A stretch of DNA of 63,891 nt, taken from the NCBI GenBank assembly GCA_010093815.1, contig ML996568.1; one strand, 5' to 3'. A program made the position numbers and the translations under genes. The DNA comes from Pseudovirgaria hyperparasitica (lineage: Eukaryota). Shown here piece by piece: positions 22,014-62,320 of this stretch. Every line of letters begins with the position of its first letter. Within the stretch, counting starts at the first letter, position 1. Under the pieces are notes generated by a model. That model saw nothing but the letters and a program-made list of their open reading frames with translations. It made no database searches and was not told where the DNA came from.

Positions 22014-22072
<59 letters not shown>
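22014..22072. repeat. (AAT)n run, interpreted as the 3' tail of a minus-strand LINE (L0)
   Basis: Every other LINE or SINE 3' end in this window carries the same (AAT)n/(TTA)n tail. The run continues into the assembly gap. Confidence 0.75.
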
Positions 22073-29500: not shown

Positions 29501-30928
29501 TAGAACCACATACCGTTAGTATAGAAACTTCTAGATTAGAGCTATCTTCCCTAAATTTACGGCTCTTTAGCACGCGCGAGGAAGGAACCTTAGCCTTTTT
29601 ACTAGAACCTTTTCTAGGAATTCTAATATCACCAGTATATAGAAAGAAGTCCGAAGGAGCAGAGATTTTAGCACTATTATAGAGATTAATATATATTAGT
29701 AAGAATCTATAACGATTTAAGAAAAACGATATTACCTAGTAATCGCGGTAATAATAGCTATAGTAGATTCCGATAAACCCTTACGGATCTTATTAGAATC
29801 GTACTCCTAGGCGTAACCCTTACCTTAGGTATATAGCTCGTAGAAAGCCTTCTCTAAGGTGTTGCGATCGGTAGTACCACGCTCCTTATTAGTAGGGGTC
29901 ACTAGAGGCCTAGTAGTAATCTATACCGATATAAGTAAATCTATATAAAGTTCTTCGAACTTACTTAAATACCTATAAGTAATAACGCTTCTTAGTTATA
30001 TAAGTGCCGTATATTATAGATTTAGTACTGCCGTGAGTAATATACGACGGAAAGCGATAACCATAATAATATATAGCTAGATTATTAGAGCCCGGCCTAG
30101 GTTAGGGTAGATCGATAGCTTTCGACATGTCGGTAACGTATACGAGATAGGGATTATTCGAAGGCGCCTATTTCCGCGCTAATTACTTTAGAGCGTTAAG
30201 ATTTCGGGAAACTATATTACGATTATTATTGATTTATGCGGATTATTACGAATTATATTATTACTAGCTAAGGACGGTATAAAAATTAGTAAATTACGCT
30301 AAATCGTACTAAATAGTAGTAAATCTATATAAATCTATGTCTATAAGGATCGGGTAATATATCTAATAATCTAAAAAACTCTATAAAGAGTTGAGAAGTT
30401 TTTTAAAGAAAGGAATATTTCTAAGAAAAGATTTTAATATAGGTAGTACCCGGGCTTACCTAATTACATTACGTGATACGCTAGGCCTAATTAGGTAATC
30501 TTACCTATATAAGAAGTTAAGATGGATAAAATCTAGTTTATTAGAAAAACGCTTGTATGAATCTTAGATCGGCGAATATCGGTAAGTATCTAAGACGAAG
30601 CGTAGAGAACGACTAAGGTCTTACGAGACTTAGGATGGGGATATAGGGATAGGTAACGATCTAGGTCGCTAAGGGCAGCTTCCTAGAGGGAAGGGATAAT
30701 TATTAGGACTTAGCCTTAGGTAGGACCCGACCTACACGTACCTTAGCTAATAGGGTTAGGAGGTGACGTAAAGGGCGGTAAATAGTTACGTGCTAGATAG
30801 ATCGGCGTCCCTTTATATATATACTCTCGGATTCCTACCGAAAGGGTTCGGTAGTAATTCGTTCTATGATAGAATACACCCTATTGTTCTATCTAGCTAT
30901 ACTACTATCTAACTACCCTATTCTTATA
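23543..30928 (+). mobile_element. Ty3/Gypsy chromovirus copy A, full length (7386 bp), RIP-inactivated
   Basis: 228-bp LTRs at 23543-23770 (TG..CA) and 30701-30928, TSD AGTAA, PPT AGAGGGAAGGG. Domains: gag zinc knuckle ~25057, protease ALVDT ~25256, [24 protein letters not shown] ~25937 and YLDN(D) ~26276, RNase H, integrase HHCC ~27507, GPY/F ~28400, chromodomain YEVK..KGYSPNEDT(W)EP ~28607-28712. Stops are TAA/TAG, as expected from RIP. Confidence 0.95.
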
Positions 30929-31181
30929 AGTAATATTAAAATTTCTAAAAAAGGTTCTAGTAAAAAGGCTAAGGTTCCTTCCTTACGTATACTAAAGAGC
31001 TATAAATTTAGAAAAGATAGCTCTAATCTAGAAGTTTCTATACTAAAGATATATAGTTCTATACTAATTATTAAATCTTTTTACTAATTTATATAATTCT
31101 TAGCGTACCTACGCTAGTCTATCTCTCTCTATTCCGGGTTCTACCGCTCTATAGGTTTCTATAGAGAAGTTTATAGCTATA

Positions 31182-34100: not shown

Positions 34101-36486
34101 GTCTCTATATATTCATGGTCGGAGTCTATCTATATAAGGCTTAGGCGGTAGTATTAAGTCCTATTATAAATATATCTAGTGGCTAGGGTAAGGTCGAGTG
34201 TAGATCCGCCCTTATCTTATTTATATTTTCGCTAGGTAATCTATTCTACTAGTATAAGAAGATATAGAAAGCCGTAGTATTAGGTACGTAGTTCTCTAGC
34301 TCGAAGCTCTTCGCGGGTAACGGTTAGTCTACCCTACTAGCTATAATAGAGGTTAAAGTCTCCTAGAAGGATATATTATTCTAGCTCGGTGGTACCCTTA
34401 AGTATATTATCCGCCTAAAGTAATCGGTTCTAATTATATATATTATATATATAGAGGGGTCCGATATTCGTCTAGAGGTATAGTATTATCCGGAGGTTAT
34501 CCCGTTTAGTATACGACTATAATAAGAGTAGAATAGACTTATAGACATAGAAGAGGACTCTCCTCTCCGGTCCTAGGGGGTGTATTATATAATATTCTAG
34601 GTGTGTTATTAGTTTATTCGTCTAGTAGTATTTATATAGCTCCTATATAGCGAGTATTATAGCTTCGGTCTCCTCGAGGAGTATCGCCTAGTTCTTACGT
34701 TTATACTATACGTTTATCTATATAATTAGAAGTACGTCTTAGTCTCTCATTAGGTACTAGAGAATATATAGGCCTATATATTCGTTCTACTAAGACGCGA
34801 CTATCCTTATACGGCGGCGGCCTTAGTAATTTCTTAGGGCCGTTCTATTATTAGCTTTCTCGGGATGGTTTACTATTCCTAACCGCTTCCTTATAAGGAG
34901 GTAGTCTATAGTAGTAGTATTATAGTAAAGAGAGGAACGGTAGTAGGTCGTATAGTTTATAGCTACCTTACTCCCTTTATCCGGATTAAGTAGATATATT
35001 TAGTAATCTATTTACGTTTCGCGCACGTAGCCGACTACGATAGGTACTTACCGTCGTAGTTAGAGTACTTTACCATGTCCCTATCTCTTTAGCTCTCTCC
35101 TCGTATCCCGTAGGGGCACTCCTAGGTACTATATTCTTATTAATACTACCTATATCTAGTCTTTTAGAAGTACCGCTATGCCGTATACCTATATCTCTAA
35201 TAGTTAAAGTACTATATTATCGCCTATGCTCTATCCCATGGTTCCGCTATAAGAAGCTCCCCTTCTACTAGGAATCCCTCTTATATAATTTAATACGCGA
35301 GGGTAGGGTCTTTAAGCTCCACTATTATAGTAGAGTATACCTTTAATCTAGTTTTAATCCCTTATATATTCTTCTACCATGCTCTTATAATCTTAATCCC
35401 TAGGTATTTTCGCTCGTTTAACTATTCTATCCGTGTAATATCCTCTTCTCCGATAACCTATCCGCTTATAGATATAGAGTATATCTATATTAGGTATATG
35501 GCCGCCCTAATAGAGGCGCCTAGAAAGATACTACTAATCGCGTTTAGATCGCGCGAGATAGTCTACTACACGATATTCGTTATTATAGTAAGTACTACTC
35601 CTTCTAGTATAAGTTTAGCGGCGATAATATTTAACTATATTCCCTTTTATTCGTTAATCTTACTTACTATATTCTTTAGGGATACTTACTAGACCTATAC
35701 TAGGGTATCCTTATCCTAGATTATAACGTGTATACTATATACCGTGTCGCCGGTCTAGGGGGCCCGTAGTATAGCCTCCGGTATTACTACTATTTATACC
35801 TATATACTAGGGCGCTTACCTTAAGTAAGTTCCTCCTAGATTCTACGTAGGCTAGCCTCTATTTAGTTAAGCCTACCCTCCGGTCCTTCTAGTTATATCT
35901 TCTTCTTCTCCTCTATAATTCCCTTTAGATTCCGGATAAGGTCCTAGAATATATATAGGAGGGTCTTCTAGCCCTCTCTAGCTTCCTTCTCTATATATAC
36001 TATCTAGTAGTTAATATAATCTAGGAGGGTTTCCCCTCTTAGGGTCCCCTTTATTCCGTCTATCTATAGCGGCGTGCGCCTTTAGGTATATTCTACGTTT
36101 TAGATAGATATATAGTTACCCTTAGTAATATTACTATATAGCCTTTTCTATCGTACTAGTAGGGGTATATCCGGTATATACTAGGGTATATTAGTACCTA
36201 AGGCCGCTATATTTATTAGTTAAGGGCTACCCTTAACTAATAAAAGGGGGTCGGTATATTAGCGTTCTAGTAGCGTGGTCCGTGCCTCTATCTCTGTAAG
36301 GATTTTAAGAGGGTATATATATATCTTTATACGGCGATAACGTCTTAGTTTCGACGCTACACGTACGTGCGTATAGTAGTAGTTAGTGTACTCGGTATAC
36401 TCTATTAATTAAGGTATATATCTCGCTATATTACCCCGAATAGACTAAGTTAGCCTCTTAGGGATGTAAAAGTTATAGTATCGTCT
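31182..36486 (-). mobile_element. Full-length Tad1-like LINE L1 (subfamily 1), RIP-inactivated
   Basis: (AAT)n tail at the left end; 15-bp TSD AAGTTTATAGCTATA (31167-31181 / 36487-36501). ORF1 and the APE-RT ORF2 are colinear with L2. Confidence 0.9.
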
Positions 36487-37419
36487 AAGTTTATAGCTAT
36501 ATAATATACTATATAGAATTTATAGTATTAGAATAAAAGGCTAGAGACTTATATTATAAAGCTCTATACTATACTAAATAAGAACTAGTAGAAGGAATTA
36601 GATATAATTATCGCGGTAATTAGTACTTCTACTTCTACTCCGACTTAATTAGTTTAGATCTATACTAATTAGTACTAATATATCTCTTTTATCTAGTATT
36701 TTTAGTTTTTTAGTTTTAATTTTAAAGTAATCTTACTTCTTCTAGATAGATTAGTATAAGTTTATATAGATTTATATAGATCTTTATATTTTCTTTTAGC
36801 TTTCTTAATTTTATCTTTCTTTAATAATAACTTCTTTAGTCTCTTTAGTAATCTATACGAATCTATACCGATTAGTACCGATTTTTAATATCTATTTCTC
36901 TTAGTAAATTATTTTTCTAAGTCTCTTTTTTAGTTAAATTTTTAAAGTTCTAAGTTTAAACTTTCTAAGGGAGTTCTAAGTTCGAACTTTCTAAGGAAGT
37001 TTCTTAATTTCTTAGAATATTTTAAAGATCTATATCTCTTTTACCTTCTTCCTTTTAGATAGCTATCCTTAGTACTAAACTATACTAAAAAAATATTAAA
37101 TTACTATACTTTAGTATAATTCTCTATAATTCCGCGGCTTTCTTTACTAATTACTACTTATATACTAATATCGCTACTTTACTAATATTTATTATAGGTT
37201 TCTAAGTATCTTTATTAGAATTATATTCTTTCTAATAAATTTTATATAGCTATATACTATCTTTAGCGCGTTACTAGCTAAGTATCTACTTAACTTTATA
37301 GATATCTATATCTTCTTATATAACTACTTTATATAGTATCTATTTAGAATAATCTAGTAATAATAAGATATAAAATAGCTCGAGAAGCGTAATATAGAAT
37401 ATATTATATATCTTTAATA

Positions 37420-40400
37420 AAACTTAAACTTCTTATACTCTAACGGACTAAACTAGTTAATTCGGGGTAAAACAGCGATTTATATACATTAAACGATAGA
37501 GTATACCGAGTATAACAACCTCCGACATATATATATACGTGTAGTATATAATACGCGACGATACCGACGTATAGAGATACTATATATATACGCTTAAAGA
37601 TTCTTCGATAATATAAGCATAGACTATATCTAATAAATACTAACACGCTAACCCCCTTTTATTAGTTAAGGGCTACCCTTAACTAATAATTATAGCGGCC
37701 TTAGATACTAACGTACCCCGGCTTCCACCGGGTATATCCCTAATACTAGTACGGTAGAAACGGCCATATAGCGGTATATCCTAGAATAATTAAACCCCCG
37801 TCTAATAAACGACGAATAACTAAGGGCGTATAACGCTATAGATAATAGAGATAGAGGGGACCCTACCCGGGGAGACCCTCCTAGATAAGATTAACTACTA
37901 GATAGTATATATAGAGAGGGAAGTCGAGAAGAGAGAAATAGCCCTCCTTAGTATCTTTCGGAACCTTATCTAGAATATTAGAGAGCTTACCGTAGGAGTA
38001 AAATAGGCGCTAGAATTAGACCTAGAATCTAGACTAGATTATATAGAGGCTAGCCTATAGAGGATCTAGGAGGGCCTTACCTAGGGAAAACGCCCTAGCA
38101 CGTAGGTATAGGTCGCCGCATCTATAAACGGAATAGCTATGTTAGCTAAAATACTAAGGGCACCTATAGACGGGGTATATAGTATATAAGTTACTATCTA
38201 GGATAAAGAAGTACTTATATAAGTCTAGTAAGCGTCCCTAAAGGATATTATAAATAAGATTAATAAATAGAAAGGGATATAGTTAAATATAGTAGCCGCT
38301 AAACTTACCCTAGAAGATATAGTACTAACTACTACTACTAACACGGCCTAGTAGACTATCTCGCGTAACCCGAACGCGATTAACGATATCTTCCCTAGCG
38401 CGTCCGTCCGCGTAACCACGTACCCGATATAGATATATACTATCCCCGTCTAAGGACACGTTATTAGAGAAGATAATATTAAGCGAATAGAGTAATCTAA
38501 CGAACCGAAGTACCCTAGAATTAAGATCGTGAAGGCGTGGTAGAAGAACGTCTAAGGGATTAAGATAAAATTAAAAAAGTACTCTACTATAATAGTAGAG
38601 CTTAGGGACCCCGCTCTCGTCTATAGAATAATATAGGAGGGCTTCCTAGCCGAAGAAGAGCTACTTATAGCGGAACTATAGGATAGAGCATAGATAATAA
38701 CGTAATACTTTAACTATTAGGGATATAGATATACTAGATAGAGATACTCTTAGAAGACCGCCTATAGATAGTATAAATAGGGCTATAATACTAAGGAATA
38801 CCCTTATAAGACGTAGAGCGACGAGACGCGAGATAGGGATACTACTAAGTACTCTAACTACGACGGGAAACATCTATCCTAGTCAATAACATATACGAAA
38901 CATAAGTAGGTCGTAGAATATATTAACGCGATAAAGATAAGAGAAGTAAGGTAGATATACTAAGCTATAAGGCCCTCGCTGCCCTCGCCGCTATCCCTAA
39001 CTTTACTTATAAATCTAGTAACCACCCCCTAAAGGGGAGAGGATAACGTGTAATAGTATACTATATAGAGAAAGATAGGCCGACCCTAGAGTATACTTAA
39101 AGCCGCTACCGCGCGAGAATAATCACGCCTTAGCGCCACTAATATATAGACTCGAACTTTCCCTAGCACCTAATAAGGGTATAAGATATACTTATTATTA
39201 TATAGGCGAACGTATAATATAAATAAGAAAACTAAGCGACGCTTCTAGAAGAAATAGGAGCCGTAATAATAGCTATCTAGGAACTATATAAACACTACTA
39301 AACTAATAAGCTAATAATACACCTAGAATACTATACCATCTACCCTATAGGCCCGGATAGGAGAGTTATATTTTATATATATAAGTTGATCCCGCTCTTA
39401 GAATAGTCTTATACCGAATCTAATAACCTCTAGATAACACTATATCTCTAGATAAGTATAGGGCCTATCCATATCTATAATATCTATAATTAATAGCGAT
39501 CGCTTACGCTAGATAATATACTAGAGGGTACTATAACGCCGGGATAATATATCCTCCTAGGCGACTTTAATCTCTACTATAGGTAGTAGAGAGGCCTAGC
39601 TATCGCGAGAGAAGAACTTAGAGTAAGGGAACTATATATACGGTGCCACGACTTCCTATACCTCCTTATATCTATAGGGTAGATTATCTAGAGGAAATAT
39701 AAATAGGATAAGGACGGGTCTACGCTCGACCTTACCCTTACTACCGAGTATATTAGCTATAGAGTATAGTACTACCGCCCGAGCCGGATATAGACGGACT
39801 CCGACCATAAATATATAGAAACCGTAATAGATATCTCTACTCTTAACGAATAATATAGAAAATAGCTATAGAAGGATACTAATTAGGATAAATACCTAGA
39901 GGACCTAGAATCGGCGATTCTAGACCCCTCTATAGTTAACGTATCTAACGGCCTAGCTATAGATAAGGCCGTGTAAGTCCTCCTTTAAGTATACTAAGCC
40001 ACGAGAGATAAATATATACTATACCGAATATATAGACCCCTAGAAGCGAGGGGTATACCTTAAATACGAGAGTATAGAAGAGACGCCCGTAGACTATATA
40101 CACGTATATACTATATCCGGATAACTAAGGCGTAGGAAGAGTAGAAGGAAGTAGTACGATATCGTAATAGGGCCCTCCGTAATAAATAATAAAAGTAATA
40201 GTATATAATTACTAATAAATACACACGGTAAGCCGTAGAGCTATAGTATATAGTAAAGTAGGCTAAGGGTATAGACGCGCCGATACCGCCACCACTAATA
40301 CCTCCCCTAATATACTAAGAGAGAATATACTCTATAAGCCCGGAGAAGACGGAGATCTTATATAAAGTTATATTCCCCCTTCTAGAGCTAGTAGACCTAT

Positions 40401-42731
40401 TAGATATTAATAATACTAAATACCTAGATATAATTAATATCCCCTAAGAGGTTACTAAGGAGGATATACTCGACGCTATTAAAGTACTCCCGAATAATAA
40501 GGCACCTAGACCGGATAGAATACCGAATAGATACCTTAAATATACTATACTAGCTACCCTACCGCTTATTAGTTATATATTTTAAGTATATATTAAGAAC
40601 GGATACTACCCCTAAAGCTTCCGGGCCGTCTATACTATTATACTCCCGAAACTAGAGAAGAACTCTAACTCCCCGAAAGGATAGAGGCTAATTACCCTCC
40701 TCTTCTATCTTAGAAAGATACTAGAGGCTATAATCGCGAAGAAGATAAGCGCCATAGTATAGAAATATAACCTCCTTCTAGTAAACTAGAAGGCGAAGGC
40801 TAGAAGCTCCCTAATTACCGCTATCTAATATATTCTCGAAGTTATCTAGACCGTATAGAAGTAGAGACGTATAGTAACGCTACTCTCCCTTAATATGGCC
40901 GGCGCATTTAATAAAGTAAACTATATAAGACTTATCTATAACTTACAGAAGAGGCGTATACCCGTATAGATTACGCGGTTTATATAGTTCTTTCTTACTA
41001 AAAGAGTTACCTAGATATATATTCCTAGATATCGAAGTAAGTATAAGAAGACGGCTTACGGCATCCTATAAGAAAGTACTATCTCCCTAATTCTATTTCT
41101 CTTCTTTACTATAGACCTTCTCTAGAGAATATAACGTATAGAGGTAGTAGGGTACGTAGATAATATATACCTTCTAGCTATCGATAATAATACTAGCTAA
41201 ACATATAGACGACTCGAATAAGACTATAGAAGATACATCTAATAGATAAAGCGCTATAGAGTAAAGTTCGCCCCCGAAAAGTACTAACTTATATACTTTA
41301 TTAACCGCTATAGGAAATGGGCTACTAGGGAAGGCGAGCGACGCTCTAGAATAGACGCCTTTAACGAACTACCGATATAAAGTATACGCGTACTTAGTAT
41401 TATAATCGATAATAAGCTTAAATAGAGACCATAGGTAGCATACGCCGTTTCTAGGGCCCTCTAGATAGAAGCCGCTATATAATAGATTATAGCCTCTACG
41501 TAGGGAACCGCCCGGGATAAGATATACTAGCTATATATATCTATAGTACGACCCGCCTTTACGTACGGATACGAGTACTAGTACACGGCCCTTATATAGA
41601 CTAGGCGAATAAAGCTCGAATCTATATAGAACCGTATACTCCGTCTTATATTAGGCGTATATAAAGCTACTAACACGGTACTACTATAACGCGAGATAGA
41701 CGTTATAAGTATATATAACTTCTACTAGATATAGAGGGTAGTATACTTTACTAAATAATAAGCATAGAAATATATAGAAAATATAGAATATACCTTTACC
41801 GCGCTACGCGCGCGAGTTAGTATATACTACTAAGTACTCTTATATATAGACCGGACTCGACTATAGTATAAGTACCCGATAGAAATAGACTCGAACTAAG
41901 TAGTATAAGAGATTAAGGATAACCTAGATACCCTTCTAGACTAATAGAGCCTTTAAGAGCTCGGACGAAGTATATAGTCGTGGATCTAAGATAAGTAGAA
42001 AGAGATACTCTAGGCCTAGTAGGCCTTCTAGTAGAATAGATATCTAGAGTAGATCTAAGAACTATAGAAGGAGCCGAGTAAATAGATATATAAAGGGCTT
42101 ATAAAGGCCTAGGTATCTATACTCCTCTAAGCCCGAACGGGCGCTATAGAACTTCTATACTATCTCTATAAGAGAGGCGTCCCTAATGTATCTCTATAGT
42201 ATAAGGCGTGTAGCTAGAGAGATATAATACGCTACTATCTTATAATATACCCTAATCTTTATACGTAAAGATAGAAGCTTATCTATATAATAAGAACCTC
42301 TAATATTATACGATAGCTTAATAAGTACCCTAAGGACGTTACCTAGTAGATAATTATATATCTACTACTCCTCTAATTCTAGTAGACCTAGAAATATATA
42401 CTAGAAGAGACCCGGCACACGCTAGTAGTAACCCGATATATACTAGAAGAACTCCGGGAGAACCCTAATTATTAGTTAAGGGTAGCCCTTAACTAATAAC
42501 CTCCGTATCTATACGTGCTACCTAAGGGTAAAATAATAGTAATATAGGCTATAGGCTAATAGGCGTACTCTATAGCTATATACTTAAGACGAAATAGAGG
42601 TTTAACGAGATATAGTTATAGATATAAGGAAGTTTTTCTCTATAGGGTTTCTTCTTATATAATAGCTTAGACTAGAGGAGACATAGGCCTATAGAGTACT
42701 ACTCTACCTAGTTATATAATATTATTATTAT
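37420..42731 (+). mobile_element. Full-length Tad1-like LINE L2 (subfamily 2), RIP-inactivated
   Basis: ~18-bp TSD TATTATATATCTTTAATA (37402-37419 / 42732-42749). Endonuclease motifs LLGDFN ~39553, STLDL and DSDH; RT motifs KAP.PD.IPN ~40499, MAGAFN.V, G.(PQG)ST.S.ILF ~41060, GYVD(D) ~41150 and KFAPEK. (TTA)n tail. Confidence 0.92.
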
Positions 42732-43113
42732 TATTATATATCTTTAATATAGAAGGGAGTTATAACTTATACGCCTAGTTATTAGTTACATAAGTAATCT
42801 TATATAGATCTATTATTATATAGTTAAGCTTCTTCTTTAGTCTAATACTATAAATATTCTTATTATTTAGTAAAACTTTATCCCTAATATTAAAGATTAT
42901 AGGTTTTCTACCCTTATTATAGTATGATTTACTATAATCCATAGTATCTTATAGTAACTTTATAATACTTCTTTATATTTAGAATAGTTCTATAGTAATT
43001 TCTATTACTTTAACATTAGGTTATTCTACTTTAAACTAAGTCTCTAAGAACTATATATTATAGTTTTAACTAAAGTTTACTTTAAATGGACTTATGTAGG
43101 TTAACGTATATTA

Positions 43114-46100
43114 TATAAGAATAGGGTTATTGGATAGTAGTATAGTTAGATAGAATAATAGGGTGTATTCTATTATAGAACGAATTACTACTAAACCCTT
43201 TTAGTAGGAATCTAAGAGTATATATATAAAGAGACGCCGATCTATCTAGTATATAACTATTTACTACCCTTCACGTTACCTTCTAACCCTATTAGCTAAG
43301 GTATATATAGGTCGGGTCCTACCTAAGGCTAAGTCCTAATAATTATCCCTTCCCTCTAGGAAGCTACCCTTAGTAACCTAGATTATTACCTATCTCTATA
43401 TCTCTATCCTAAGTCTTATAAGACCTTAGTTATTCTCTACGCTTCGTCTTAGATACTTACCGATATTTACTAATCTAAGATTTATATAAGCGTTTTCCTA
43501 ATAAACTAGATTTTATCTATCTTAACTTCTTATATAGGTAAGATTATCTAATTAGGCCTAGCGTATCACGTAATATAATTAGGTAAGCCTAGGTACTACC
43601 TATATTAAAATCTTTTCTTAGAAATATTCCTTTCTTTAAAAAACTTCTTAACTCTTTATAGAGTTTTTTAGATTATTAGATATATTACCCGATCCTTATA
43701 GACATAGATTTATATAGATTTACTATAATTTAGTACGATTTACGCAATTTACTAATTTTCGTACTATCCTTAGCTAGTAATAATATAATTCGTAATAATC
43801 CGTATAAATTAATAATAATCTTAATATAGTTTTCTAAAATCTTAATACTCTAAAGTAATTAGTACGGAAATAGACGTCTTCGAATAATCTCTATCTCGTA
43901 TATATTACCGATATATCGAAAGCTATTAATCTACCCCGACCTAGGCCGGGCTCTAATAATCTAGCTATATATTATTATAGTTATCGCTTTCCGTCGTATA
44001 TTACTTACGGTAGTACTAAATCTATAATATACGGTACTTATATAACTAAGAAGCGTTATTACTTATAGGTATTTAAGTAAGTTCGAAGAACTTTACGTAG
44101 ATTTACTTATATCAGTATAGATTACTACTAGGCCTCTAGTAACCCCTACTAATAAGAAGCGTGGTACTACCGATCGTAACGCCTTAGAGAAGGCTTTCTA
44201 TATACTATATATCTAAGGTAAGGGTTACGCCTAGGAGTACGATTCTAATAAGATCTGTAAGGATTTATTAGAATCTACTATAGCTATTATTACCGCGATT
44301 ACTAGGTAATATCGTTTTTCTTAAATTATTATAGATTCTTACTAATATATATTAATCTCTATAATAGTACTAAAATCTCTACTACTTCGGATTTCTTTCT
44401 ATATACCGGCGATATTAGAATTCCTAGAAAAGGTTCTAGTAAAAAGGCTAAGGTTCCTTCCTCACGCGTGCTAAAGAGCTATAAATTTAGGGAAGATAGC
44501 TCTAATCTAGAAGTTTCTATACTAAAGGTATATGGTTCTATACTAATCGTTAAATCTTTTCGCTAATTTATATAATTCTTAGCGTGCCCGCGCCGGTCCG
44601 TCTCTCTCTATCCCGGGTCCCGCCGCTCCATAGATTTCTATAGAGAAGTTTATAGCTATAAGGCGTGCTATATAGAATTTATAGCGTCGGAATAAAAGGC
44701 TAGAGACTTATATTATAAAGCTCTATACTATGCTAAATAAGAACTAGCGGAAGGAATTAGATATAACTATCGCGGTAATTAGTACTTCTACTCCTACTCC
44801 AACTTAATCGGTTTAGATCTATACTAATTAGTACTAATATATCTCTTTTATCTAGTGTTTTTAGTTTTTTAGTTTTAATTTTAAAGCGATCTTACTTCTT
44901 CTAGATAGATTAGTACGAGTTTATATAGATCTATATAGATCTTTATATTTTCTTTTAGCTTTCTTAATTTTATCTTTCTTTAATAATAACTTCTTTAATC
45001 TCTTTAGTAATCTATACCGATCTATACCGATCGGCACCGATTTTTAATGTCCATTTCTCTTAGTAAATTATTTTTCTAAGTCTCTTTTTTAGTTAAATTT
45101 TTTTAAAGTTCTAAGTTCGAACTTTCTAAGGAAGTTCCTTAATTCCTTAGAATGTTTTAAAGATCTATATCTCTTTTACCTTCTTTCTTTTAGGCGGCCG
45201 TTCTTAGTACCGAACTATACTAAAAAACGTTAAATCGCTATACTTTAGTATAATTCTCTACGATTCCGCGGCTTCCTTTACTAATTACTACTTATATACT
45301 AATATCGCTACTTTACTAATATTTATTATAGGTTTCTAAGTATCTTCGTTAGAATTATATCCTTTCTAACGAATTTTATATAGCCACGTACTATCTTCGG
45401 CGTGTTACTAGCTAAGTATCTACTTAACTTCGTAGATATTTATACCTTCTTACGTAACTACTTTATATAGTATCTATTCGGAATGATCCGGTAATAATAA
45501 GGCATGAAATAGCTCAAGAAGTATAATATAGAATATATTATATATCTTTAACGTGGGAGGGAGTTTTAACTTATACGCCTAGTTATTAATTACACGAGTA
45601 ATCTTAAATAGATCTATCATCGTATAGTTAAGCTTCTTCTTCGGCCTAATACTACGAATATTCTTACTATTTAGTAAAACTTTATCCCTAACATTAAAGA
45701 TTATAGGTTTTCTACCCTTATTATAGTATGATTTACTATAATTCGTAGTATCTTATAGTAACTTTATAATACTTCTTTACGTTTAGAATAGTTCTATAGT
45801 AATTTCTATTACTTTGATATTAGGTCGTTCTACTTTAAACTAAGTCCCTAAGAACTACGTATTATAGTTCCGACCGAAGTTTACTTCGAACGGACTTACG
45901 TAGGTTAACGTATATCGGCTATTATTATATGCGAATTCCGCGATATAGACTAACCTTACCTAGTTATTCTACTTATAGTTATAATATACGCGTAAATACG
46001 CCTCGACTATCTAATTCTACCGCTCCGTCTATCTATCTATTTATAGATAGAACGTAGTACTAAGTTTCTACTTAATTCCTAGTATATAGTAGAAATCCTT

Positions 46101-49100
46101 CTAAAATTTAGACGTTATCTACGGACCTCTATCCGAAACTATACCATTCAGTATACTATAGAGCCAGACTACGTTACGGAGTAGTATATCTATAAGATCC
46201 AGTACTTAGATCGTCTTCCTTATAGGGATATAGTATAATATCTTTATAAATCTATCTAGAACTACGAGTAAACTATTATAAATATACCTAGAATACTTAC
46301 TTAGGGGTAGATCTATAATGAAATCCATCGATAATTCCTTCCATGCCTTCTTTAGCATAGGTAATAGCCTTAATTTACTATATGGTAAGTATCTATATAC
46401 TTTCGTATGCTGGTAAACGTTACACATTTTTACGTAGTCTTTTATATATTTATAAAGACCCGGCCAGTCGTACGTCCTTCGGATTAAATCGACCGTCCTT
46501 ATAACGCCGAAGTGCCCTACTAACGCGTAATTATACTATTCCCTTAAAATATCGATTTATAAGCCGCCTTCCGGCACGTAGAGTCGGCCTTAGAAGTAGA
46601 TTATATCTAATTATCGTTCCTACCTTAATAACTACGGCGGATCTATAGCGCTTCCTTTTATACTTATAACTTTCTTTACTAATATATCGGAATTCTAGGT
46701 AGATTTAATTAAGTCTTTAAGGGTTTTCTTAGTTTCTTAGACGTTTATTTAGATTACTTAATACCTACTCTAATTCCCGCGGAGAATCGCCGAAAGTATC
46801 CTAGCTTCTAGTATTCTATTAGATAACTAGTCTTATAGTATCTAAAGTATAGTATAGTCTAACTTANNNNNNNNNNATAACGATTTCTTATAATCTTTAC
46901 GCCGCGATAGAGGATTAGCTTTATTCTCTCTTCTAGCTTTATATAAGATTTTAAAGTTAAATATTAATATCCACTTAGCCTAACGTACTTATCGACGGTT
47001 AAGGACCTTAGTTAATATAAAGTAACGTAGATTTACGTAATCCGATAATAATTCGATCTAATATACGGAGCCTTCTAAATAATATTACTATTACTTAAAA
47101 CTCTTAACGATTACGAGTAGTTCCTAGTCGTGTATATTATAACGCGTCTCTATATCCGCCATTTTATAGGAAAAGAAAGCGACCGGGTACTATTATACCT
47201 TATCTTTCGTATCTTTATACGGTTAACTAATAATTCTAGTAATTATAAATCCTAACGCGTTAGTTTCGACCCGAATATACTTCTTAGAATTAAAATGCCT
47301 AAGAATTAGCGTAGTTATAAAGTAATTCTTTAACGATCGGAATATATCTCGCGCTTCCGGCGTTAACTATATCTCGACCGACTTAGCTTTACGCTATACT
47401 CGCCTACCTATAGAGATTTTACCGCTATTCTCTATAAGTTTATTAAGCGGCGCCGTAATTCGTAAGAAGTCTATAATAAATTTACGATAATAGTTCACGA
47501 AACCTATAAATATTCTAATTTAACGTATAGTAGTAGGTTCTAGCTATTCTATGATGGTCTTTACACGCTCTAGCTCTATTTTTAGGCCGCTATATATTAT
47601 AATAAAGCCGAGAAACCTAACTTCTTATTAGTGAAACTTGCATTTAGATAATTTTACGTAGAGTTTATACTACCTTAGATGATTTAGTACCGATTTCACG
47701 TATTCTTTATGATTCTATATACTATCGGAGTAAATTAGTATATTATTAAGATAAACTATATAAATCACGTTAAGTAATCCTACGAGTATAGTATTAATAT
47801 ATTCTTAAAACGCTCCTAGTATATTTATTAGCCCGAATGGTATAATAGTATACTTAAAATAACTATATCTAGTCCGAAATGCGGTTTTCTACTTATCTCT
47901 ATAATGAATTCGAAGCTAGTAATATATATCTCGTAAATCTAGCTTCGTAAAGTACTTTACCTTTATTAATTAGTCTAAAGATTTACTAACTAGCGGTAAT
48001 AGATAACGATTCTTCTTAGTTACTATATTTAGTACCTAATAGTCGACGTATAGATATAAACTTCCGTCTTTCTTCTTTATAAAGAGAATAGATATACCGG
48101 CTAATGACGTACTATAACGTATCTAGCCTCTTTCGAGGTATTCTCTAATATATTTACGAAGAACTTTAAGTTCTAGTCTTAAAAGTAGGTAAAGTAGACT
48201 ATAAGGGACGTCTACTCCCTCTTCGAGCTTAATCTTTAGCTTATATAGCCCGTGATTAGGGAGAAGTAACGTATCTCCTACTGAAAATACATCTATATAC
48301 TATGAATATACGTTAGGTAGCGTGTCTTCGCCCTAATTATTACTATTATCCTTATCTTTATTAATGATTAATAAGGACGTAAGATAGATTAACGATAATT
48401 AGGTCCGTATAGCGAGGTTCTATATCTCCTTACTAATAGTTATAACTTACTAGTATAATTTACTACGGTGTCGTTAGAATATTAATATCTTCTTCTAAAA
48501 ATCAAGGATAGGGTTTAGGCGTCTAAGCTAAGGCATCCCTAGAATTATATTCTATTAGCTAATATTAGCCACGATAAATTTATTAGATATCTACTATTTT
48601 ATTATCTTCAAGTTATGAACTTTATAATTCGTTATAGCTTTATCTAAAGTTCTAACTTTATATCTATTAACTACGATAGTTCGGCTAACTTTACCGAGAT
48701 TATACGATAATCTATACTCCTTTACGAGAATCGATAAAATATAGTTATCTTCTATACTAGTATCCACGAGGGCCTATATAGTTTTATTACTATTTACTAT
48801 AGGTAACGATACTTTTAGTAATATTAGATCTTTACTTACTAGAAGGCGCTATAGCTTCTTCTAAGTATATATAATTTAGCTAAGAACGCGGTTAGGTCTC
48901 GTGTACTAGCCTATTCTTTTTTTAGATTCTTATAGTTAGGCGAAATATATTCTATTTCTCTATACTTATAGTAACGAAGTATACTATAATCCTACTATTT
49001 TATAATAGGCGTTATATTTAAGCCTATACCTTATCCTTTTCCGCGTTAAGAAGTACCGCCTTAATTATTTTAGTATCCTCTTAACGCGTTTCTACCCCGA

Positions 49101-50486
49101 TTTACGCTCTTCTAGCGCTAATTATAGTAAGGTTACTCTTAATCGAACGTATTTAATCGACCTCGTTTCTAACCCGTGTAGAGTTCGTCGGTTTTATCTA
49201 GAGAGCCGCGTTCCTTAAGAATGCGGTAGTATTTATTAGCTTTCTCCTCTAATTTATATAGATAGTTAAAACTTAATAATACTATTTCTAGTCTTTCGCG
49301 GATTAACGGAAGTAGTACTTTACGAAACTAGAATATATGAATATTTTTCTATAGCGTAGGGATATTATTCTATAGGTTTTAGAGGTATTATAGTAGTTAA
49401 GTAGATGTCTAGTTTAGTCGTTATACTACGCTTCTTAACTTAGATAGTGCCTTTCTTTTACGTTCTCTATCTGTTCTAAGGGTATTTAGTATAAATATAG
49501 CTAAATATTCCTAGGTTATCGTAGATAGTGGCTGTACTTCCTTCTATCTATCCTATTAATCGCGGGATTATAAGTCTAGGTATCGTTCTCTAAATAAAAT
49601 ACGTTATACTTTAGTAGAAAAGAGTAGAGGGTTATTAAGGAAGTACTTTTCGTAGTCTCTCTTCTAGTCTTTCTACTTCTTTTAGTTCTTCCCTATAAAT
49701 ATAGTCGGGTCTTTAGATTTTAGTATACCTAGGGAAGGAGTAGAGTAAATCGGTAACGAAGCGGCTGGGTATATAGTAGATTATCGCAACTCTAATGGTA
49801 GGTAAACTAATTCCGCCTAAATTAGTATAGGAAGTCGTCCATCTACTATCGTTCGGCGTAGTTCTTTAAGAGACTCCTTAAGTTCTTATCTCTTTATGAG
49901 GAGTTTCGCGCGTTCTACCTATTCTTTAAGGGTTTAAATCTCTCGAGCCTAATTCGCGACGTATTTCTAAAGTTCGGCGATGGTTTATTATAATACCTTA
50001 CGTGGCTCCGCCACGACTCATTATCTAGCTTTATATTATTAGAAGTTACTTCGCGTATCTACTATTTCTTCGTCTAAAAGCTCCGTAATTCGGTCTAATA
50101 TTTCTACTTCTTAGTTAGAAACGGCTAGGATTAATACTAATTATAGAGGATCCCTATTATTTAATATAGTATTACTTATCTCTATAGTAGATCGTGTCGA
50201 CCTTCTCGGTTCTAGTTAGACTATCTTAACTATAGTACTATATAGGGAGTAATTCGAATATAAGAATAGGGTTATTAGATAGTAGTATAGTTAGATAGAA
50301 TAATAGGGTGTATTCTATTATAGAACGAATTACTACCGAACCCTTTCGGTAGAAATCTAAGAGTATATATATAAAGGGACGCCGATCTATCTAGCACGTG
50401 ACTATTTACCGCCCTTCACGTCACCTTCTAACCCTATTAGCTAAGGTACGTATAGGTCGGGTCCTACCTAAGGCTAAGTTCTAACA
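43114..50486 (-). mobile_element. Ty3/Gypsy chromovirus copy B, full length (~7.37 kb), RIP-inactivated
   Basis: 228-bp LTRs at 43114-43341 and 50259-50486, TSD TATTA. The internal region is the reverse complement of copy A. Confidence 0.95.
43398..44850 (+). pseudogene. Putative spliced antisense accessory gene inside the Gypsy 3' region (RIP-mutated; homologous to ~29190-30644 minus in copy A)
   Basis: The frames contain only RIP-type stops. A phase-preserving intron lies at 44306-44367, with further candidate introns at 44010-44068 and from the donor at 43538. Boundaries are approximate. Confidence 0.5.
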
Positions 50487-50992
50487 TATTAGCTATTATT
50501 ATATATAAATTCCGCGATATAGACTAACCTTACCTAGTTATTCTACTTATAGTTATAATATACGCGTAAATATACCTCGACTATCTAATTCTACTACTCC
50601 GTCTATCTATCTATTTATAGATAGAATATAGTACTAAGTTTCCGCTTAATTCCTAGTGTATAGTAGAAATCCTTCTAAAATTTAGACGTTATCTACGGAC
50701 CTCTATCTAAAACTATACTATTTAGTATACTATAGAGCCGAACTACGTTACGGAGTAGTATATCTATAAGATCTAGTACTTAGATTATCTTTCTTATAGA
50801 AATATAGTATAATATCTTTATAAATCTATCTAGAACTATAAGTAAACTATTATAAATATACCTAGAATATTTACTTAGGGGTAGATCTATAATAAAATCT
50901 ATTAATAATTCCTTCTATACCTCCTTTAGTATAGATAATAGCCTTAATTTACTATATAGTAAGTGTCTATATACTTTCGTATACTAGTAAAC

Positions 50993-51573
50993 TATTAGGC
51001 ACGTGCCTACTAGTTAATTATATATGTATATAGTAGTCGTATATAAGTAGTATACTCCACCCTTAAAGTAGTAGCTTTAAGATTCGGTCCTTTTAGTATA
51101 GTTAGTTAGTACGTGGAGCCCGCCTCCTTATATAATCTTAAAGCTACTACGGGGTTACGGGTTCAACTCTCGGTCTAGTTAACCGTTATTGAATTTCGCA
51201 CGATTCCGTTTAGCTTACTACGTTACGTATACTTTGTACACGTAACGGATAACATGGTGGTAACGTTACTACGGTAAGTTAGCGTGTCTAGTGCTAGAGG
51301 CGGCATTGCGAGTATTAATTAGGTGTACACATGATTCGTTTATACTAGGCCTATTATAGCTAGTTTAGTTTATCTTTCGTAAGGTAGATACCTACAACGC
51401 GTAAGGGCACGCGCCTTTAAAAAAGGGAGATATTATTAGGTACGTGCCTGCCAGTTAATTATACATGTATGTAGTAGTCGTATATAAGTAGTGTGCTCTA
51501 CCCTTGAAGTAGTAGCTTCAAGATTCGGTCCTTTTAGTATAGTTGGTTGGTACGTAGAGCCCGCCTCCTTATA
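50993..51573 (+). mobile_element. TRIM (terminal-repeat retrotransposon in miniature), 581 bp, non-coding
   Basis: 140-bp direct LTRs at 50993-51132 and 51434-51573, 5-bp TSD TAAAC, PPT AAAAAAGGGAGA before the 3' LTR, 301-bp non-coding interior. Confidence 0.9.
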
Positions 51574-53850
51574 TAAACGTTATATATTTTTATATAGTTC
51601 TTTATATATTTATAAAGACCTAGCTAGTTATATATCCTTCGGATTAAATTAACTATTCTTATAATGCTAAAGTACTCTACTAACGCGTAATTATACTATT
51701 CCCTTAAAATATTAATTTATAAGCCGTCTTCTAGTATATAGAGTCAGTCTTAGAAGTAGATTGTATCTAATCGTCGTTTCTACCTTAATAACTATAGTAG
51801 ATCTATAGCGCTTCCTTTTATACTTATAACTTTCTTTACTAATATATTAGAATTCTAGGTAGATTTAATTAAGTCTTTAAGGGTTTTCTTAGTTTCTTAG
51901 ATATTTATTTAGATTACTTAATACCCGCTCTAATTCCCGCGGAGAATCGCTAAAAGTATCCTAGCTTCTAGTATTCTATTAGATAACTAGTCTTATAGTA
52001 TCTAAAGTATAGTATAGTCTAAATTATACTAACTATCTATATTATTCTATAACGATTTCTTATAATCTTTATACCGCGATAGAGGATTAGCTTTATTCTC
52101 TCTTCTAGCTTTATATAAGATTCTAAAGTTCAATATTAATATCTACTTAGCCTAATATACTTATTAGCGATTAAGGACCTTAGTTAATATAAAGTAATAT
52201 AGATTTACGTAATCCGATAATAATTCAATCTAATATATAGAGCCTTCTAAATAATATCGCTATTACTTAAAACTCTTAATAATTATAAGTAGTTTCTAGT
52301 TATACGTGTTATAACACGTCTCTATATCTACTATTTTATAGAAAAAGAAGGTAACTAGGTACTATTATACCTTATCTTTCGTATCTTTATACGGTTAACT
52401 AATAATTCTAGTAATTATAAATTCTAACGTGTTAGTTTCGACCTAAATATACTTCTTAGAATTAAAATACCTAAGAATCGGCGTAGTTATAAAGTAATTC
52501 TTTAACGATCGAAACGTATCTTATACTTCCGGTATTAACTATATCTCGACTAACTTAGCTTTACGCTATACTTATCTATCTATAAGGATTTTACCGCTAT
52601 TCTCTATAAGTTTATTAAGTAATACCGTAATTTATAAGAAGTCTATAATAAATTTATAATAATAGTTTATAAAATCTATAAACGTTCTAATTTAACGTAT
52701 AGTAGTAGGTTCTAGCTATTCTATAATAGTCTTTACACGCTCTAGCTTCATTTTTAGGCCGCTATATATTATAATAAAGCCGAGAAACCTAACTTCTTAT
52801 TAGTAAAACTCGTATTTAGATAATTTTATATAGAGTTTATACTACCTTAGATAATTTAGTACTAATTTCACGTATTCCTTATAATTCTATATACTATTAG
52901 AGTAAATTAGTATATTATTAAGATAAACTATATAAATCACGTTAAGTAATTCTATAAGTATAGTATTAATATATCCTTAAAACGCTTCTAGTGTATTTAT
53001 TAGCCTAAATAGCATAATAGTATACTTAAAATAACTATATCTAGTCCAAAATACAGTTTTCTACTTATCTCCATAACAAATTTAAAGCCAGTAATATATA
53101 TCTTATAAATCTAGCTTTATAAAGTACTTTACCTTTATTAATTAGTCTAAAGATTTACTAACTAGCGGTAATAGATAATAATTCTTCTTAGTTACTATAT
53201 TTAGTATCTAATAGTTAATATATAGATATAAACTTCTATCTTTCTTCTTTATAAAGAGAATAGGTATACTAGCTAATAATATACTATAACGTATCTAGTC
53301 TCTTCTAAGGTATTCTTTAATATATTTATAAAGAACTTAGAGTTCTAGTCTTAAAAGTAGATAAAGTAGGCTATAAGGGACGTCTACTCCCTCTTTAAGC
53401 TTAATCTTTAGCTTATATAGTCTATAATTAGGGAGAAGTAACGTATCTCCTACTAAAAACATATCTATATACTATAAATATACGTTAGATAGCGTGTCTT
53501 TACCCTAATTATTACTATTATTCTTATCTTTATTAATAATTAATAAGGACGTAAGATAGATTAGCGATAATTAGGTCTATACGGTAAGGTTCTATACCTT
53601 CTTACTAATAGTTATAACTTACTAGTATAATTTACTATAGTATTATTAAAATATTAATATCTCCTTCTAAAAATTAAGGATAGGGTTTAGGCGTCTAAGC
53701 TAAGGTATCCCTAGAATTATATTCTATTAGCTAATATTAGCTACGATAAATTTATTAGATATCTACTATTTTATTATCTTTAAGTTATGAACTTTATAAT
53801 TCGTTATAGCTTTACCTAAAGTTCTAACTTTATATCTATTAACTATAATA

Positions 53851-54786
53851 ATAATAATATTAGTGTTTAACTAGGAAGAACTATATATATAGCCATATAT
53901 ATGCTCCACAGGCTTAGGCCTCCTCTAGTATTGGCTGCTATGTATATAAGAAAACCTCCTGTGATTGGCTCCCTAACTAGACCCTGTTACTAACCTAACC
54001 TGGCCTAGTCTAAGTCCTTGAATCCCATTGGGTGACAAACTTACTTTCTTATCCTTATATTAGGCTTTTATTACTATATTGGTACCGGCTCTTAATAACG
54101 CCCTAACCAACTATAGTAGATATTACCTTTCTTGTGATTGGGCAGGTCGCTAGGCTAGGCCTAGTCTTTTATTCCTGTGTTACCGTGTTTTTCCTATCCA
54201 TGGGAATATAGCTTTGCGCCGGGTAGTAGTCATTGATTAAGATAACTAATACCGGAGGGGGTGTATATCTAATAGGTCCATGCCTTAGCACTAACCCTAG
54301 CTAGGCCGAATTCGGAAATTGTTCTTCGGGGCTATGTAATCGTCTATAGGTAGGCGGGATACTTAATTGGGTATTGCTGTCTATTTCGTGGTTGCCGAGC
54401 CGGAGTAAGCGCGAGCTAAGCCGGATTAGGGTGGACAAGGCCCCGGTATATGGTGAAAATTCTATGATTCGAGCTAAGCTAGTTGTGGGTCTAGCCGCTC
54501 TAGGCGTCGCTCTACCACTCAAGGTGGCTTGGCAGGTGGCTATATTAGGTAATTCTCATCATGTGATGACGGTATAGTCATTTTTCACATTACCTAATGG
54601 TCGCTCAGGACTAAGTAGTTATGTGACGGCAACCTTCACGTCACGTGCTCGCTTAGCCCCGCACACTTTTGATAGAGCGTGCGAAAACTAGTGTATGAAA
54701 AGGTGGCCGTTGTAGGATTCGAACCCACGACGTTGGATGACAAACGCTTCTAGTAACGTAGCATACTACCACTACGCCACCTGGCC
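53851..54786 (-). mobile_element. tRNA-derived SINE, 936 bp, with LINE-like 3' end
   Basis: ~18-bp TSD TATCTATTAACTATAATA (53833-53850 / 54787-54804). The head carries Pol III boxes A and B. The last ~100 nt resemble the LINE 3' ends, followed by a (TTA)n tail. Confidence 0.88.
54704..54786 (-). promoter_or_regulatory. tRNA-like SINE head with internal Pol III promoter (not a functional tRNA gene)
   Basis: GGCCAGG-TGGCGTAGTGG (box A) ... GTGGG-TTCGAAT-CCTAC (T arm, box B) -AACGGCCA. The long variable region is Leu/Ser-like, and only 4 of 7 acceptor-stem positions pair. Confidence 0.8.
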
Positions 54787-56294
54787 TATCTATTAACTAT
54801 AATAGTTCGACTAACTTTACTAAGATTATATAATAATCTATACTCCTTTACGAGAATCGACGAAATATAGTTATCTTCTATACTAGTATCTATAAGGGCC
54901 TATATAGTTTTATTACCATTTACTATAGATAATAATACTTTTAGTAATATTAGATCTTTACTCGCTAGAAGGCGCTATAGCTCCTCCTAAGTATATATAA
55001 TTTAGCTAAGAATATGGTTAGGTCTTATATACTAGCCTATTCTTTTTTTAGATTCTTATAGTTAGGTAAAATATATTCTATTTCTCTATACTTATAGTAA
55101 CGAAGTGCGCTATAATCCTACTATTTTATAATAGGTATTATATTTAAGCCTATGCCTTATTCTTTTCCGTGTTAAGAAGTACTACCCTAATTATTTTAGT
55201 ATCCTCTTAACACGTTTCTACCCCGATTTATACTCTTCTAGCGCTAATTACGGTAAGATTACTCTTAATCGAACGTATTTAATCGACCTCGTTTCTAACC
55301 TATATAGGGTTCGTTAGTTTTACCTAGAGAGCCATATTCCTTAAGGATATAGTAGTATTTATTAGCTTTCTCCTCTAATTTATATAGATAGTTAAAACTT
55401 AATAATACTATTTCTAGTCTTTTATAGATTAACGGAAGTAGTACTTTACGAAACTAGAATATATAAATATTTTTCTATAGCGTAGGGATATTATTCTATA
55501 GGTTTTAGAGGTATTATAGTAGTTAAGTAGATATCTAGTTTAGTCGTTATACTACGCTTCTTAACTTAGATAGTACCTTTCTTTTACGTTCTCTATCCGT
55601 TCTAAGAGTGTTTAGTATAAATATAGCTAAATATTTCTAGGTTATCATAGATAGTAGCTATACTTCCTTCTATCTATTCTATTAATTTTAGAATTATAAG
55701 TCTAGGTATTATTCTCCGAACGAAATATATTATACTTTAGTAGAAAAGAGTAGAGGGTTATTAAGGAAGTACTTTTTATAGTCTCTCTTCTAGTCTTTCT
55801 ACTTCTTTTAGTTCTTCTCTATAAATATAGTTAGGTCTTTAGATTTTAGTATACCTAGGAAAGAAGTAGAGTAAATTAGTAATAAAGCGGCCTAGTATAT
55901 AGTAGATTATTATAACTCTAATAGTAGGTAAACTAATTCCGCCTAAATTAGTATAGAAAGTCGTCTATCTACTATCGTTCGGCGTAGTTCTTTAAGAGAC
56001 TCCTTAAGTTCTTATTTCTTTATAAGGAGTTTCGCGCGTTCTATCTATTCTTTAAGAGTTTAAATCTCTTAAGCCTAATTCACGACGTATTCCTAAAGTT
56101 TAGTAATAGTTTATTATAATACCTTATGTAGCTCCGCCACGACTCGTTATCTAGCTTTATATTATTAGAAGTTACTTAGTATATCTACTATTTCTTTATC
56201 TAAAAGCTCTATGATTTAGTCTAATATCTCTACTTCTCGGTTAGAAATAGCTAGAATTAATACTAATTATAGAGGATCCCTATTATTTAATATA

Positions 56295-61615: not shown

Positions 61616-61948
61616 CTATTATTTAATATAGTATTACTTATCCCTATAGTAGATTATATTAATCTTCTTAGTTCTAGTTAGACTATCTTAACTATAGTAC
61701 TATATAGGGAGTAATTCGAATATAAGAATAGAGTTATTAGATAGTAGTATAGTTAAATAGAATAATAGAGTGTATTCTATTATAGGACGAATTACTACTA
61801 AACCCTTTTAGTAGAAATCCGAGAGTATATATATAAAGAGACGCTAATCTATCTAGTACGTAACTATTTACCGCCCTTCACGCTACCTTCTAACTCTATT
61901 AGCTAAGGTATATACGGATCGGGTTATACCTAAGGCTAAGTCCTAATA

Positions 61949-62308: not shown

Positions 62309-62320
62309 ATATTTAATTAA

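Follow-up and report, generated by a model that had tools for sequence, protein, structure and literature searches.

To our knowledge, extra genes are rare in retrotransposons with long terminal repeats (LTRs), and a function is known for almost none of them. In the retrovirus human T-cell leukemia virus type 1 (HTLV-1), the basic leucine zipper (bZIP) factor HBZ is translated from a spliced antisense transcript that starts in the 3′ LTR. Among fungal retrotransposons, the only case cited in the literature searched is brtn, an antisense gene of Boty-like (BcGypsy1) elements in Botrytis cinerea and Sclerotinia (Zhao et al. 2011, as described in PMC8365987, PMC7264820, PMC4227169 and PMC5987419). 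Plant LTR retrotransposons, including RIRE2, Grande, Retand and PvRetro13, are described as carrying additional antisense open reading frames (ORFs), conserved within families, between pol and the 3′ LTR (PMC7264820). The locus considered here lies in a 63,891 nt stretch of contig ML996568.1 of Pseudovirgaria hyperparasitica (GCA_010093815.1), designated the window, in which one Ty3/Gypsy element is present three times, as copies A, B and C. As far as the accounts of brtn describe its host elements, they resemble this family in being fungal Gypsy elements with a chromodomain (a weak match here) and an extra antisense gene, in this family a candidate one, between pol and the 3′ LTR; the comparison is by that description only, and none of the 120 pol matches listed bears a Boty or Botrytis name. 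The plant ORFs are alike in position and orientation but belong to another kingdom and to other Gypsy lineages, and are likened here by layout only.

The initial annotation of the window proposed that the long spacer downstream of pol carries a spliced antisense accessory gene. The likeliest single reading, to which we assign a probability of about one half, is that the spacer is the remnant of an ancestral antisense multi-exon accessory gene that was destroyed by repeat-induced point mutation (RIP). What makes it so is a predicted gene of matching position, orientation and exon count in the closest intact relatives and, in the window, statistics of modest strength. On this basis we infer past coding of the spacer, the exon chain listed in Table 1 and any function that its product may have had.

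The pol-to-LTR spacer and its counterparts in intact relatives

A single frame of copy B contains, in order, matches to the Pfam domains gag-asp_proteas, RVT_1 (E 9.1e-30), RT_RNaseH_2, Integrase_H2C2, rve and SH3_Tf2-1 (E 2.8e-14), the last just upstream of a chromodomain. In this mutated copy the Pfam Chromo match is weak (E 0.055, 13.8 bits, under the 25.1-bit curated cut-off), and the segment aligns with the chromodomains of relatives, most of them with PF00385. As one frame holds both the protease-to-SH3 series and the weak chromodomain, the element is a chromovirus. All three copies in the window are dead. In copy A, the strand termed antisense in the initial annotation is the + strand of the window. 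The probable end of pol, ~45165 in this copy, was placed from the RGRP-type motif, which is conserved at the C-terminus and with which pol ends in relatives; measured from the chromodomain to the LTR, the spacer is ~1.97 kb and is present in all three copies, in agreement with the long stretch originally reported for three Gypsy copies. A search of the spacer for internal and tandem repeats found nothing structural. The spacer of copy B has repeated occurrences, both direct and inverted, of a short motif, ATCGGTATAG or GATCGGTATAGATC, at 28992-29036, 29207-29236, 29476-29504 and 29914-29933.

Table 1. Positions of the spacer, the candidate antisense chain, the element copies and the antisense families of related loci (window coordinates unless a locus is named)
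Feature	Location	Strand	Remarks
Spacer, copy A	43340..45165	none assigned	~1.8 kb, probable pol end to 3′ LTR; three-copy alignment
Spacer equivalent, copy B	28901-30701
Spacer equivalent, copy C	22508-23536, 30933-31182, 36487-37417
Candidate exon 1	43913..44076	+	frame 0; putative ATG in copy B only, ATA in A and C
Candidate intron 1	44077..44131	+	55 nt; perfect GTAAGT donor, TAG; no clear branch site
Candidate exon 2	44132..44305	+	frame 1; same as exon 3 of the initial annotation
Candidate intron 2	44306..44367	+	62 nt, GTAATA...TTACTAAT...ATAG; picked by the copy B chain search; donor off consensus at +5
Candidate exon 3	44368..44527	+	frame 0; start of exon 4 of the initial annotation; stop-free in A and B
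Candidate intron 3	44528..44582	+	55 nt; in copy B canonical GTATGT...GCTGAT...TAG; takes out two in-frame stops
Candidate exon 4	44583..44810	+	frame 1; 5 stops, end uncertain; weakest part of the chain
Six-tyrosine motif	43973..44062	+	spacing 2-4-10-2-5/6; possible RIP-converted (TGY to TAY) cysteine cluster
Exon 1 of the initial annotation	43398..43537	+	unsupported; ATA start; frame 1 read-through without homologue
Copy A	43113-50484	-	227-bp LTRs at 43113-43339 and 50258-50484
3′ LTR of copy A	43113..43339	-	227 bp; 92.5% identity to 50258-50484
Purine-rich tract	43341..43358	-	adjoins the copy A 3′ LTR; putative polypurine tract, read directly from the sequence
Chromodomain, pol end, copy A	45309..45434	-	corresponds to copy B residues 1612-1653
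Copy B	23545-30928	+	88.7% identity to A over 7395 columns; least mutated copy
Copy C	22508-23536, 30933-31182, 36487-37417, 42732-43111, 50486-56300	as copy A	older
AS-1	L011, L017, L022, L025, L027, L056, L071		7 loci; Zn2Cys6-like cluster, coiled coil, acidic tail
AS-2	L030, L039, L040, L059, L061, L070, L072, L079		Zn2Cys6-like cluster, coiled coil

With a pol profile, 79 chromovirus loci (596 kb) were retrieved from metagenome contigs. In a quick maximum-likelihood tree of 36 pol sequences, the window element groups with two of these loci, L001 and L002 (Shimodaira-Hasegawa-like approximate likelihood ratio test, SH-aLRT, 90), within a clade of six (99). Both loci are intact, with no RIP mutation, and the L002 pol is 41% identical to that of the window. 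In L002, a predicted antisense gene lies between the pol stop (5681) and the LTR, at L002:5903-6844 (-), with its ATG at 6844, four exons and a product of 266 amino acids (aa). Its introns, with predicted junctions at 6550/6507, 6342/6296 and 6153/6103, measure 44, 47 and 51 nt; the donors are GTAGGT, GTATGT and GTACGT, the branch sites CTGAC or CTAAT and the acceptors YAG. The introns join four frames into a product that ends in a coiled-coil-like tail; the local AT skew is reversed at this gene. In L001, a gene likewise predicted from ORFs and splice motifs is positioned between pol and the LTR at about 3690-4748 (-), with its ATG at 4748, four exons, introns of 79, 72 and 58 nt that all have GTAAGT donors, with predicted junctions at 4481/4403, 4205/4134 and 3922/3865, and a 286 aa product. 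In both genes the first exon is Cys-rich and closes with C-x2-C-x5/6-C-L right before the donor. Within each gene, the introns have similar branch-to-acceptor sequences.

The first exons of the two genes cannot be aligned with each other (E 33), and a search of a 5.8-billion-protein collection with L002 exon 1 returned only the unspliced ORF of a sister copy (P0123); genes of this type therefore evolve fast or are replaced. The candidate chain in the window spacer resembles them in position, orientation and exon number and has introns of similar size (44-79 nt in the relatives). Their Cys-rich first exons end just before a GTAAGT or GTAGGT donor, and the candidate first exon in the window ends at GTAAGT. 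The two loci differ from the window in being intact and free of RIP mutation, and no sequence similarity between them and the window is detectable. Beside another related chromovirus, an ORF at L004:6544-7056 (-) has a match (DDE_Tnp_1_7, E 1.1e-08) to the end of a transposase of piggyBac type and probably belongs to a neighbouring element.

RIP decay and a candidate antisense exon chain

An alignment of the three copies over the pol-distal 2.26 kb has 340 variable columns, of which 323 are C/T (170) or G/A (153), and the derived sites number 42 in copy B, 146 in copy A and 283 in copy C. The observed/expected ratio of CpA/TpG is 0.33 in the pol of copy B, 0.19 in its spacer and 0.09 in the copy A spacer, compared with 1.1 in host genes, and TpA is enriched ~1.5-fold in the copies. 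Given this CpA/TpG depletion, classical RIP is nearly saturated and a consensus from which RIP changes are removed (de-RIP consensus), built from three copies, cannot restore most sites. A de-RIP consensus of all genomic copies had been put forward as a check on the proposed gene; in the one built from the three copies stops remain in all frames, a result that carries no information, as CpA/TpG sites are close to saturation in each of these copies. The differences between copies across 43340-45600 and the equivalent segments are mostly CpG to TpA double changes, and 99 of the 170 C/T columns are in CpG context, which suggests that C-to-T decay came in two layers, one of classical RIP that reached saturation and another, later or slower, that was directed at CpG.

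The effect of this decay on a coding sequence was calibrated in the pol of copy B at columns where at least eight of ten relatives agree. Trp has become a stop at 10 of 16 such positions and Gln at 8 of 12, His has become Tyr at 11 of 18, Cys has become Tyr at 3 of 6, and Met has become Ile at 2 of 5. A genuine exon would thus be expected to show stops, ATA 'starts' and tyrosines. Per 100 codons, stops number 5.8 in the true pol frame of copy B and 6.8-11.4 in the pol off-frames. The initial annotation also drew on the observation that all stops in its antisense frames are TAA or TAG. In copy A this is accurate, with 164 TAA/TAG and no TGA in the antisense frames, but it is not specific to one frame; the sense frames have 190 TAA/TAG and 3 TGA, and in copy B there are 4 TGA among 152 antisense stops, two of them within the last exon originally proposed. 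The pattern arises because RIP depletes TpG and CpA and not because one frame codes.

With L001 and L002 as a guide, we drew a revised chain of four candidate exons (Table 1). Spliceosomal introns of filamentous fungi have a GT donor with G at +5, a CTRAY branch site, a YAG acceptor and a length of ~40-120 nt; of the candidate introns in the chain, the third is canonical in copy B, the second departs at +5 and the first has no clear branch site. Stops among the 242 codons of the chain number 8 in copy A, 10 in copy B and 8 in the de-RIP consensus; at 3.3-4.1 per 100 codons they are sparser than in either the true pol frame of copy B or the pol off-frames. Spliced open chains were also sought on either strand by dynamic programming, with scores compared with those from 400 simulated sequences. 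In copy A the antisense strand scored 231 and the sense strand 135, and 231 was reached in 2.2-2.8% of the simulations; in copy B the scores were 248 and 181, and 248 was reached in 6-11%. Chunks of the pol coding strand of copy A scored 147-218. Three-base periodicity (RNY sense) was detected across 44035-44334 in the frame of the second candidate exon (44132..44305), although this signal is weak (p 0.018, uncorrected) and is weak even in pol.

Parts of the original gene model are tenable. Its antisense translations closely match copy B, its third and fourth exons and 62-nt intron fit the low-stop chain, and removal of that intron joins frame 1 to frame 0 exactly. The GTAATA, TTACTAAT and ATAG elements of the intron are present in all three copies, but the donor is a poor one, with a T at +5 that cannot come from G by RIP. 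The upstream part of the model is not sustained. Each of the three copies reads ATA where it has its ATG, 57 nt from the LTR, and its first two exons are unsupported; the GTAAGA noted at 43538 is there. The 59-nt intron suggested at 44010-44068 has a GC donor in the de-RIP consensus and GT only in copy A, and it falls inside the best candidate first exon.

The candidate first exon includes six tyrosines with a spacing reminiscent of a zinc cluster, and it is possible that these were derived from cysteines through RIP. The pattern has no other match in the six frames of the whole element, with 0.08 expected per simulated element, and two unrelated matches elsewhere in the window; it ends 5 codons ahead of the perfect GTAAGT donor. 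Every copy has Tyr, not Cys, at all six positions, and a first gap of x4 sets the spacing apart from that of Zn2Cys6 clusters, to which the Tyr pattern is the window's sole resemblance.

Predicted antisense genes for zinc-cluster-like proteins in other chromoviruses

The Zn(2)Cys(6) binuclear cluster (PF00172) of fungal regulators has the spacing C-x2-C-x6-C-x5-12-C-x2-C-x6-8-C. Across the 79 related loci, Met-started antisense ORFs downstream of pol cluster into families, two of which, AS-1 and AS-2 (Table 1), have six invariant Cys with the spacing C-x2-C-x6-C-x8-11-C-x2-C-x6-7-C followed by a long helix, the six Cys being near the N-terminus in AS-2. A regular expression for a Zn2Cys6-like cluster, run on all six frames of these loci, gave 14 matches. 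Twelve are antisense and just downstream of pol (L011, L017, L030, L039, L040, L059, L061, L070, L071, L072 twice and L079); the other two are on the + strand of L022, which belongs to the same family, and in low-complexity sequence of L016. In L011 a first exon rich in Glu, Arg and Lys appears to precede the cluster, which would then be in a second exon.

Pairwise dN/dS values for AS-1 in the antisense frame range from 0.10 to 0.89. In 12 of 15 pairs no other frame of the six has a lower value; the remaining three pairs are the most divergent or shortest. By this measure AS-1, from another chromovirus lineage, is under purifying selection, which lends support to the general idea of the initial annotation. 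Pfam Zn_clus matches are weak in 8 of 9 segments from these relatives (E 0.002-0.77, all under the 21-bit cut-off), and a profile search of Protein Data Bank (PDB) sequences gave 17 weak matches that include Lac9 (E 0.013), Leu3 (0.03) and Gal4 (0.17-0.37) and also six eS27 zinc ribbons. An AlphaFold model of the L059 protein (mean predicted local distance difference test score, pLDDT, 71.8) has a small cluster domain and a 77-residue helix. A Foldseek search with this model returned nothing at E ≤0.001; among the matches listed, 16 of 17 are Zn2Cys6 DNA-binding domains (Pho7, Lac9, Gal4, Hap1, Leu3, AlcR, Put3, Ppr1 and Cep3), and the best superpose with a root-mean-square deviation (rmsd) of 1.3-2.7 Å over ~30 residues.

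As the cluster spacing, the weak profile matches, the model and the Foldseek results agree, the AS-1 and AS-2 products look like miniature Gal4-type dimeric DNA-binding proteins. They share the six Cys and the long helix with Gal4, Lac9, Leu3, Hap1, Put3, Ppr1, Pho7 and AlcR, but are only ~150-200 aa long and lack the usual middle homology region, and every match to such factors is below the curated or significance threshold. HBZ provides the best functional analogy for the relatives' genes, being element-encoded, antisense and spliced and a dimerising DNA-binding regulator, although it is an analogy only, with a vertebrate retrovirus and another DNA-binding fold. A full-text literature search found no paper linking Zn2Cys6 clusters to antisense retrotransposon ORFs, which is not proof of novelty.

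That fungal chromoviruses appear to have spliced antisense genes, several of them for Gal4-like zinc-cluster proteins, is the more interesting result and lies outside the window, the value of which is as a pointer to the intact L001, L002, AS-1 and AS-2 loci. If chromoviruses widely carry an antisense spliced DNA-binding regulator, they would control transcription, that of the element or of the host, in much the same manner as complex retroviruses, and would offer an equivalent, in retrotransposons, of HBZ and similar antisense regulators of retroviruses; this would also explain why a long pol-to-LTR region has been kept in some families.

Origin of the spacer and its setting in the window

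If the spacer does descend from an antisense gene, the genomic (sense) RNA of the active element would have kept the introns because these are in the wrong orientation to be spliced out of it. The transcript that was spliced and then translated would have been a separate antisense one, begun in or near the 3′ LTR or in the spacer. By analogy with the relatives, the product may have been small and nuclear, having a Cys-rich N-terminal part that bound Zn as well as a basic stretch and a coiled coil, an architecture that suggests an element-encoded DNA-binding regulator. The silencing suppressor or host-interaction factor first envisaged finds no support; the relatives' products look like small Gal4-type DNA-binding regulators. 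A wider proposal would be that several fungal chromovirus lineages, among them the ancestor of the window family, encode an antisense Gal4-like regulator (Zn2Cys6-type cluster, basic stretch, coiled coil and acidic tail) with introns that survive because they are antisense, and that the window spacer is a copy killed by RIP in which the Cys are now Tyr. We regard this proposal as possible but less likely than not.

Several observations weigh against a dead antisense gene. Every antisense frame of the spacer is interrupted by stops and, taken over whole frames, the spacer has 6.0-11.2 stops per 100 codons, as in non-coding frames. Its antisense strand has 1.1 intron motifs of strict canonical form per kb, compared with 0.8-1.3 per kb in pol controls. 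The AT skew is not reversed as it is at the L002 gene, the sense strand remaining A-rich, and log-likelihood scoring with pol-trained codon usage prefers sense frames in the spacer. The chain search chooses different introns in copies A and B, the signals are weak in two of the three chain introns, the non-coding strands of some other repeats reach chain scores of up to 236-273, and both the chain and the six-Tyr pattern were defined after inspection of the data. A profile built from the clusters of 13 relatives, run on window translations with Tyr read as Cys, scored -1.2 bits against a null mean of 0.7. In the quick tree, the branch to the window is long and compositionally deviant.

Homology searches were likewise negative. 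The six frames of the spacer matched no Pfam family, and candidate exon 1 and the frame of the annotated third exon were searched in Pfam only; the two large protein searches took in the first and fourth exons of the initial annotation. Its last exon (138 aa, with X at stops) had nine word-sharing candidates in the 5.8-billion-protein collection, none of them significant, and the 653 aa frame 1 read-through of copy B, which spans its exons 1 and 4, had no match among 1.84 billion representatives. Six-frame tblastn of the spacer against the 79 related loci, a comparison with related elements that had been suggested as a check, gave a best E of 2.7. In the window, the AS-1 profile reached a best E of 2.4, the L002 ORFs had no match, and tblastn with the six spacer frames recovered, from the rest of the sequence, only the family's own copies. 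The force of these negatives is limited because close unmutated relatives are absent from the collections. Among 8000 proteins scored, 5808 matched the window pol at E ≤1e-20, but the best of these are only 32-48% identical and the collections therefore hold no close unmutated relative of the family. The supporting arguments of the initial annotation were mostly properties of RIP-mutated DNA. Its general idea of an antisense, intron-bearing accessory gene has a basis in the intact relatives, which have a predicted one at this position, but nothing proves a gene in the window.

The spacer may instead never have coded, being an extended 3′ untranslated or regulatory stretch or unrelated old filler DNA that became fixed in the family's ancestor, with 'exons' that are chance openings in TA-rich RIP DNA. 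We rank such an origin second in likelihood, after a dead antisense gene. At 8 stops per 100 codons, an open run of 66 codons is expected about once in the six frames of 1.9 kb, and 44400-44640 is open on both strands; the per-frame stop densities are in the off-frame range, the density of intron motifs is that of the background, homologues are lacking, the zinc-cluster profile is negative and the copy B chain score is matched by 6-11% of simulations. What a non-coding origin leaves unaccounted for is the apparently real gene that the closest intact relatives hold at the spacer position, an antisense chain with fewer stops than the true pol frame, and a copy A antisense score above those of ~97% of the simulations, of its own sense strand and of its own pol coding-strand chunks.

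Alternatively, the spacer might once have held a sense-strand ORF such as a C-terminal extension of pol, an env-like gene or another third ORF. In several windows of the spacer, pol-trained codon scoring is highest for sense frames, the chromodomain is followed by a sense stretch rich in Lys and Arg, a sense run of 83 codons is open at ~44400-44640 and the sense strand is still A-rich. That codon score, however, named the true frame in just 13 of 19 pol windows, lacks power and is driven largely by strand composition. The continuation of the pol frame has ~9 stops per 100 codons, the sense chain scores are below the antisense ones, relatives end pol at the RGRP-type motif with no conserved sense ORF beyond, and there is no canonical intron motif on the sense strand of the spacer, although none would be expected there; a sense ORF is very improbable. 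An antisense gene might also have existed as a lineage-specific capture with another function, unrelated to the L001, L002 and Zn2Cys6 genes. The spacer has no similarity to any relative's antisense protein, and the mutually unalignable L001 and L002 first exons are compatible with turnover or independent capture. RIP damage and fast evolution suffice, however, to explain the missing similarity, and the sister elements match the candidate in position, orientation and exon count, so that we judge a separate capture improbable.

Ordinary fungal genes with ~48-50% GC occupy positions 1-21.5 kb of the window, and repeat DNA of 25-40% GC extends from ~22 kb to its end. Interspersed with the chromovirus copies is a second repeat family, at 31182-36487, 37417-42732 and 56292-63891, with 73-93% identity between its copies. 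This family does not match a chromovirus pol, and the + strand of 31183-36486 matched no Pfam family. A run of N, at least 22401-22507, lies right before the first piece of copy C, where the 3′ LTR of this copy would be expected, and accounts for the 10% GC of 22001-23000. Copy C is split by nested insertions of copies B and A and of two other repeats, so that B and A each sit inside an older copy of their own family (junctions 23536/23545 and 30928/30933 for B; 43111/43113 and 50484/50486 for A). Copy B lies in the spacer of C, and the junction has ~5 bp of sequence equivalent to 44407-44411 of copy A, the kind of trace expected from a target-site duplication. The nesting is in keeping with chromodomain-guided insertion into already silenced repeats.

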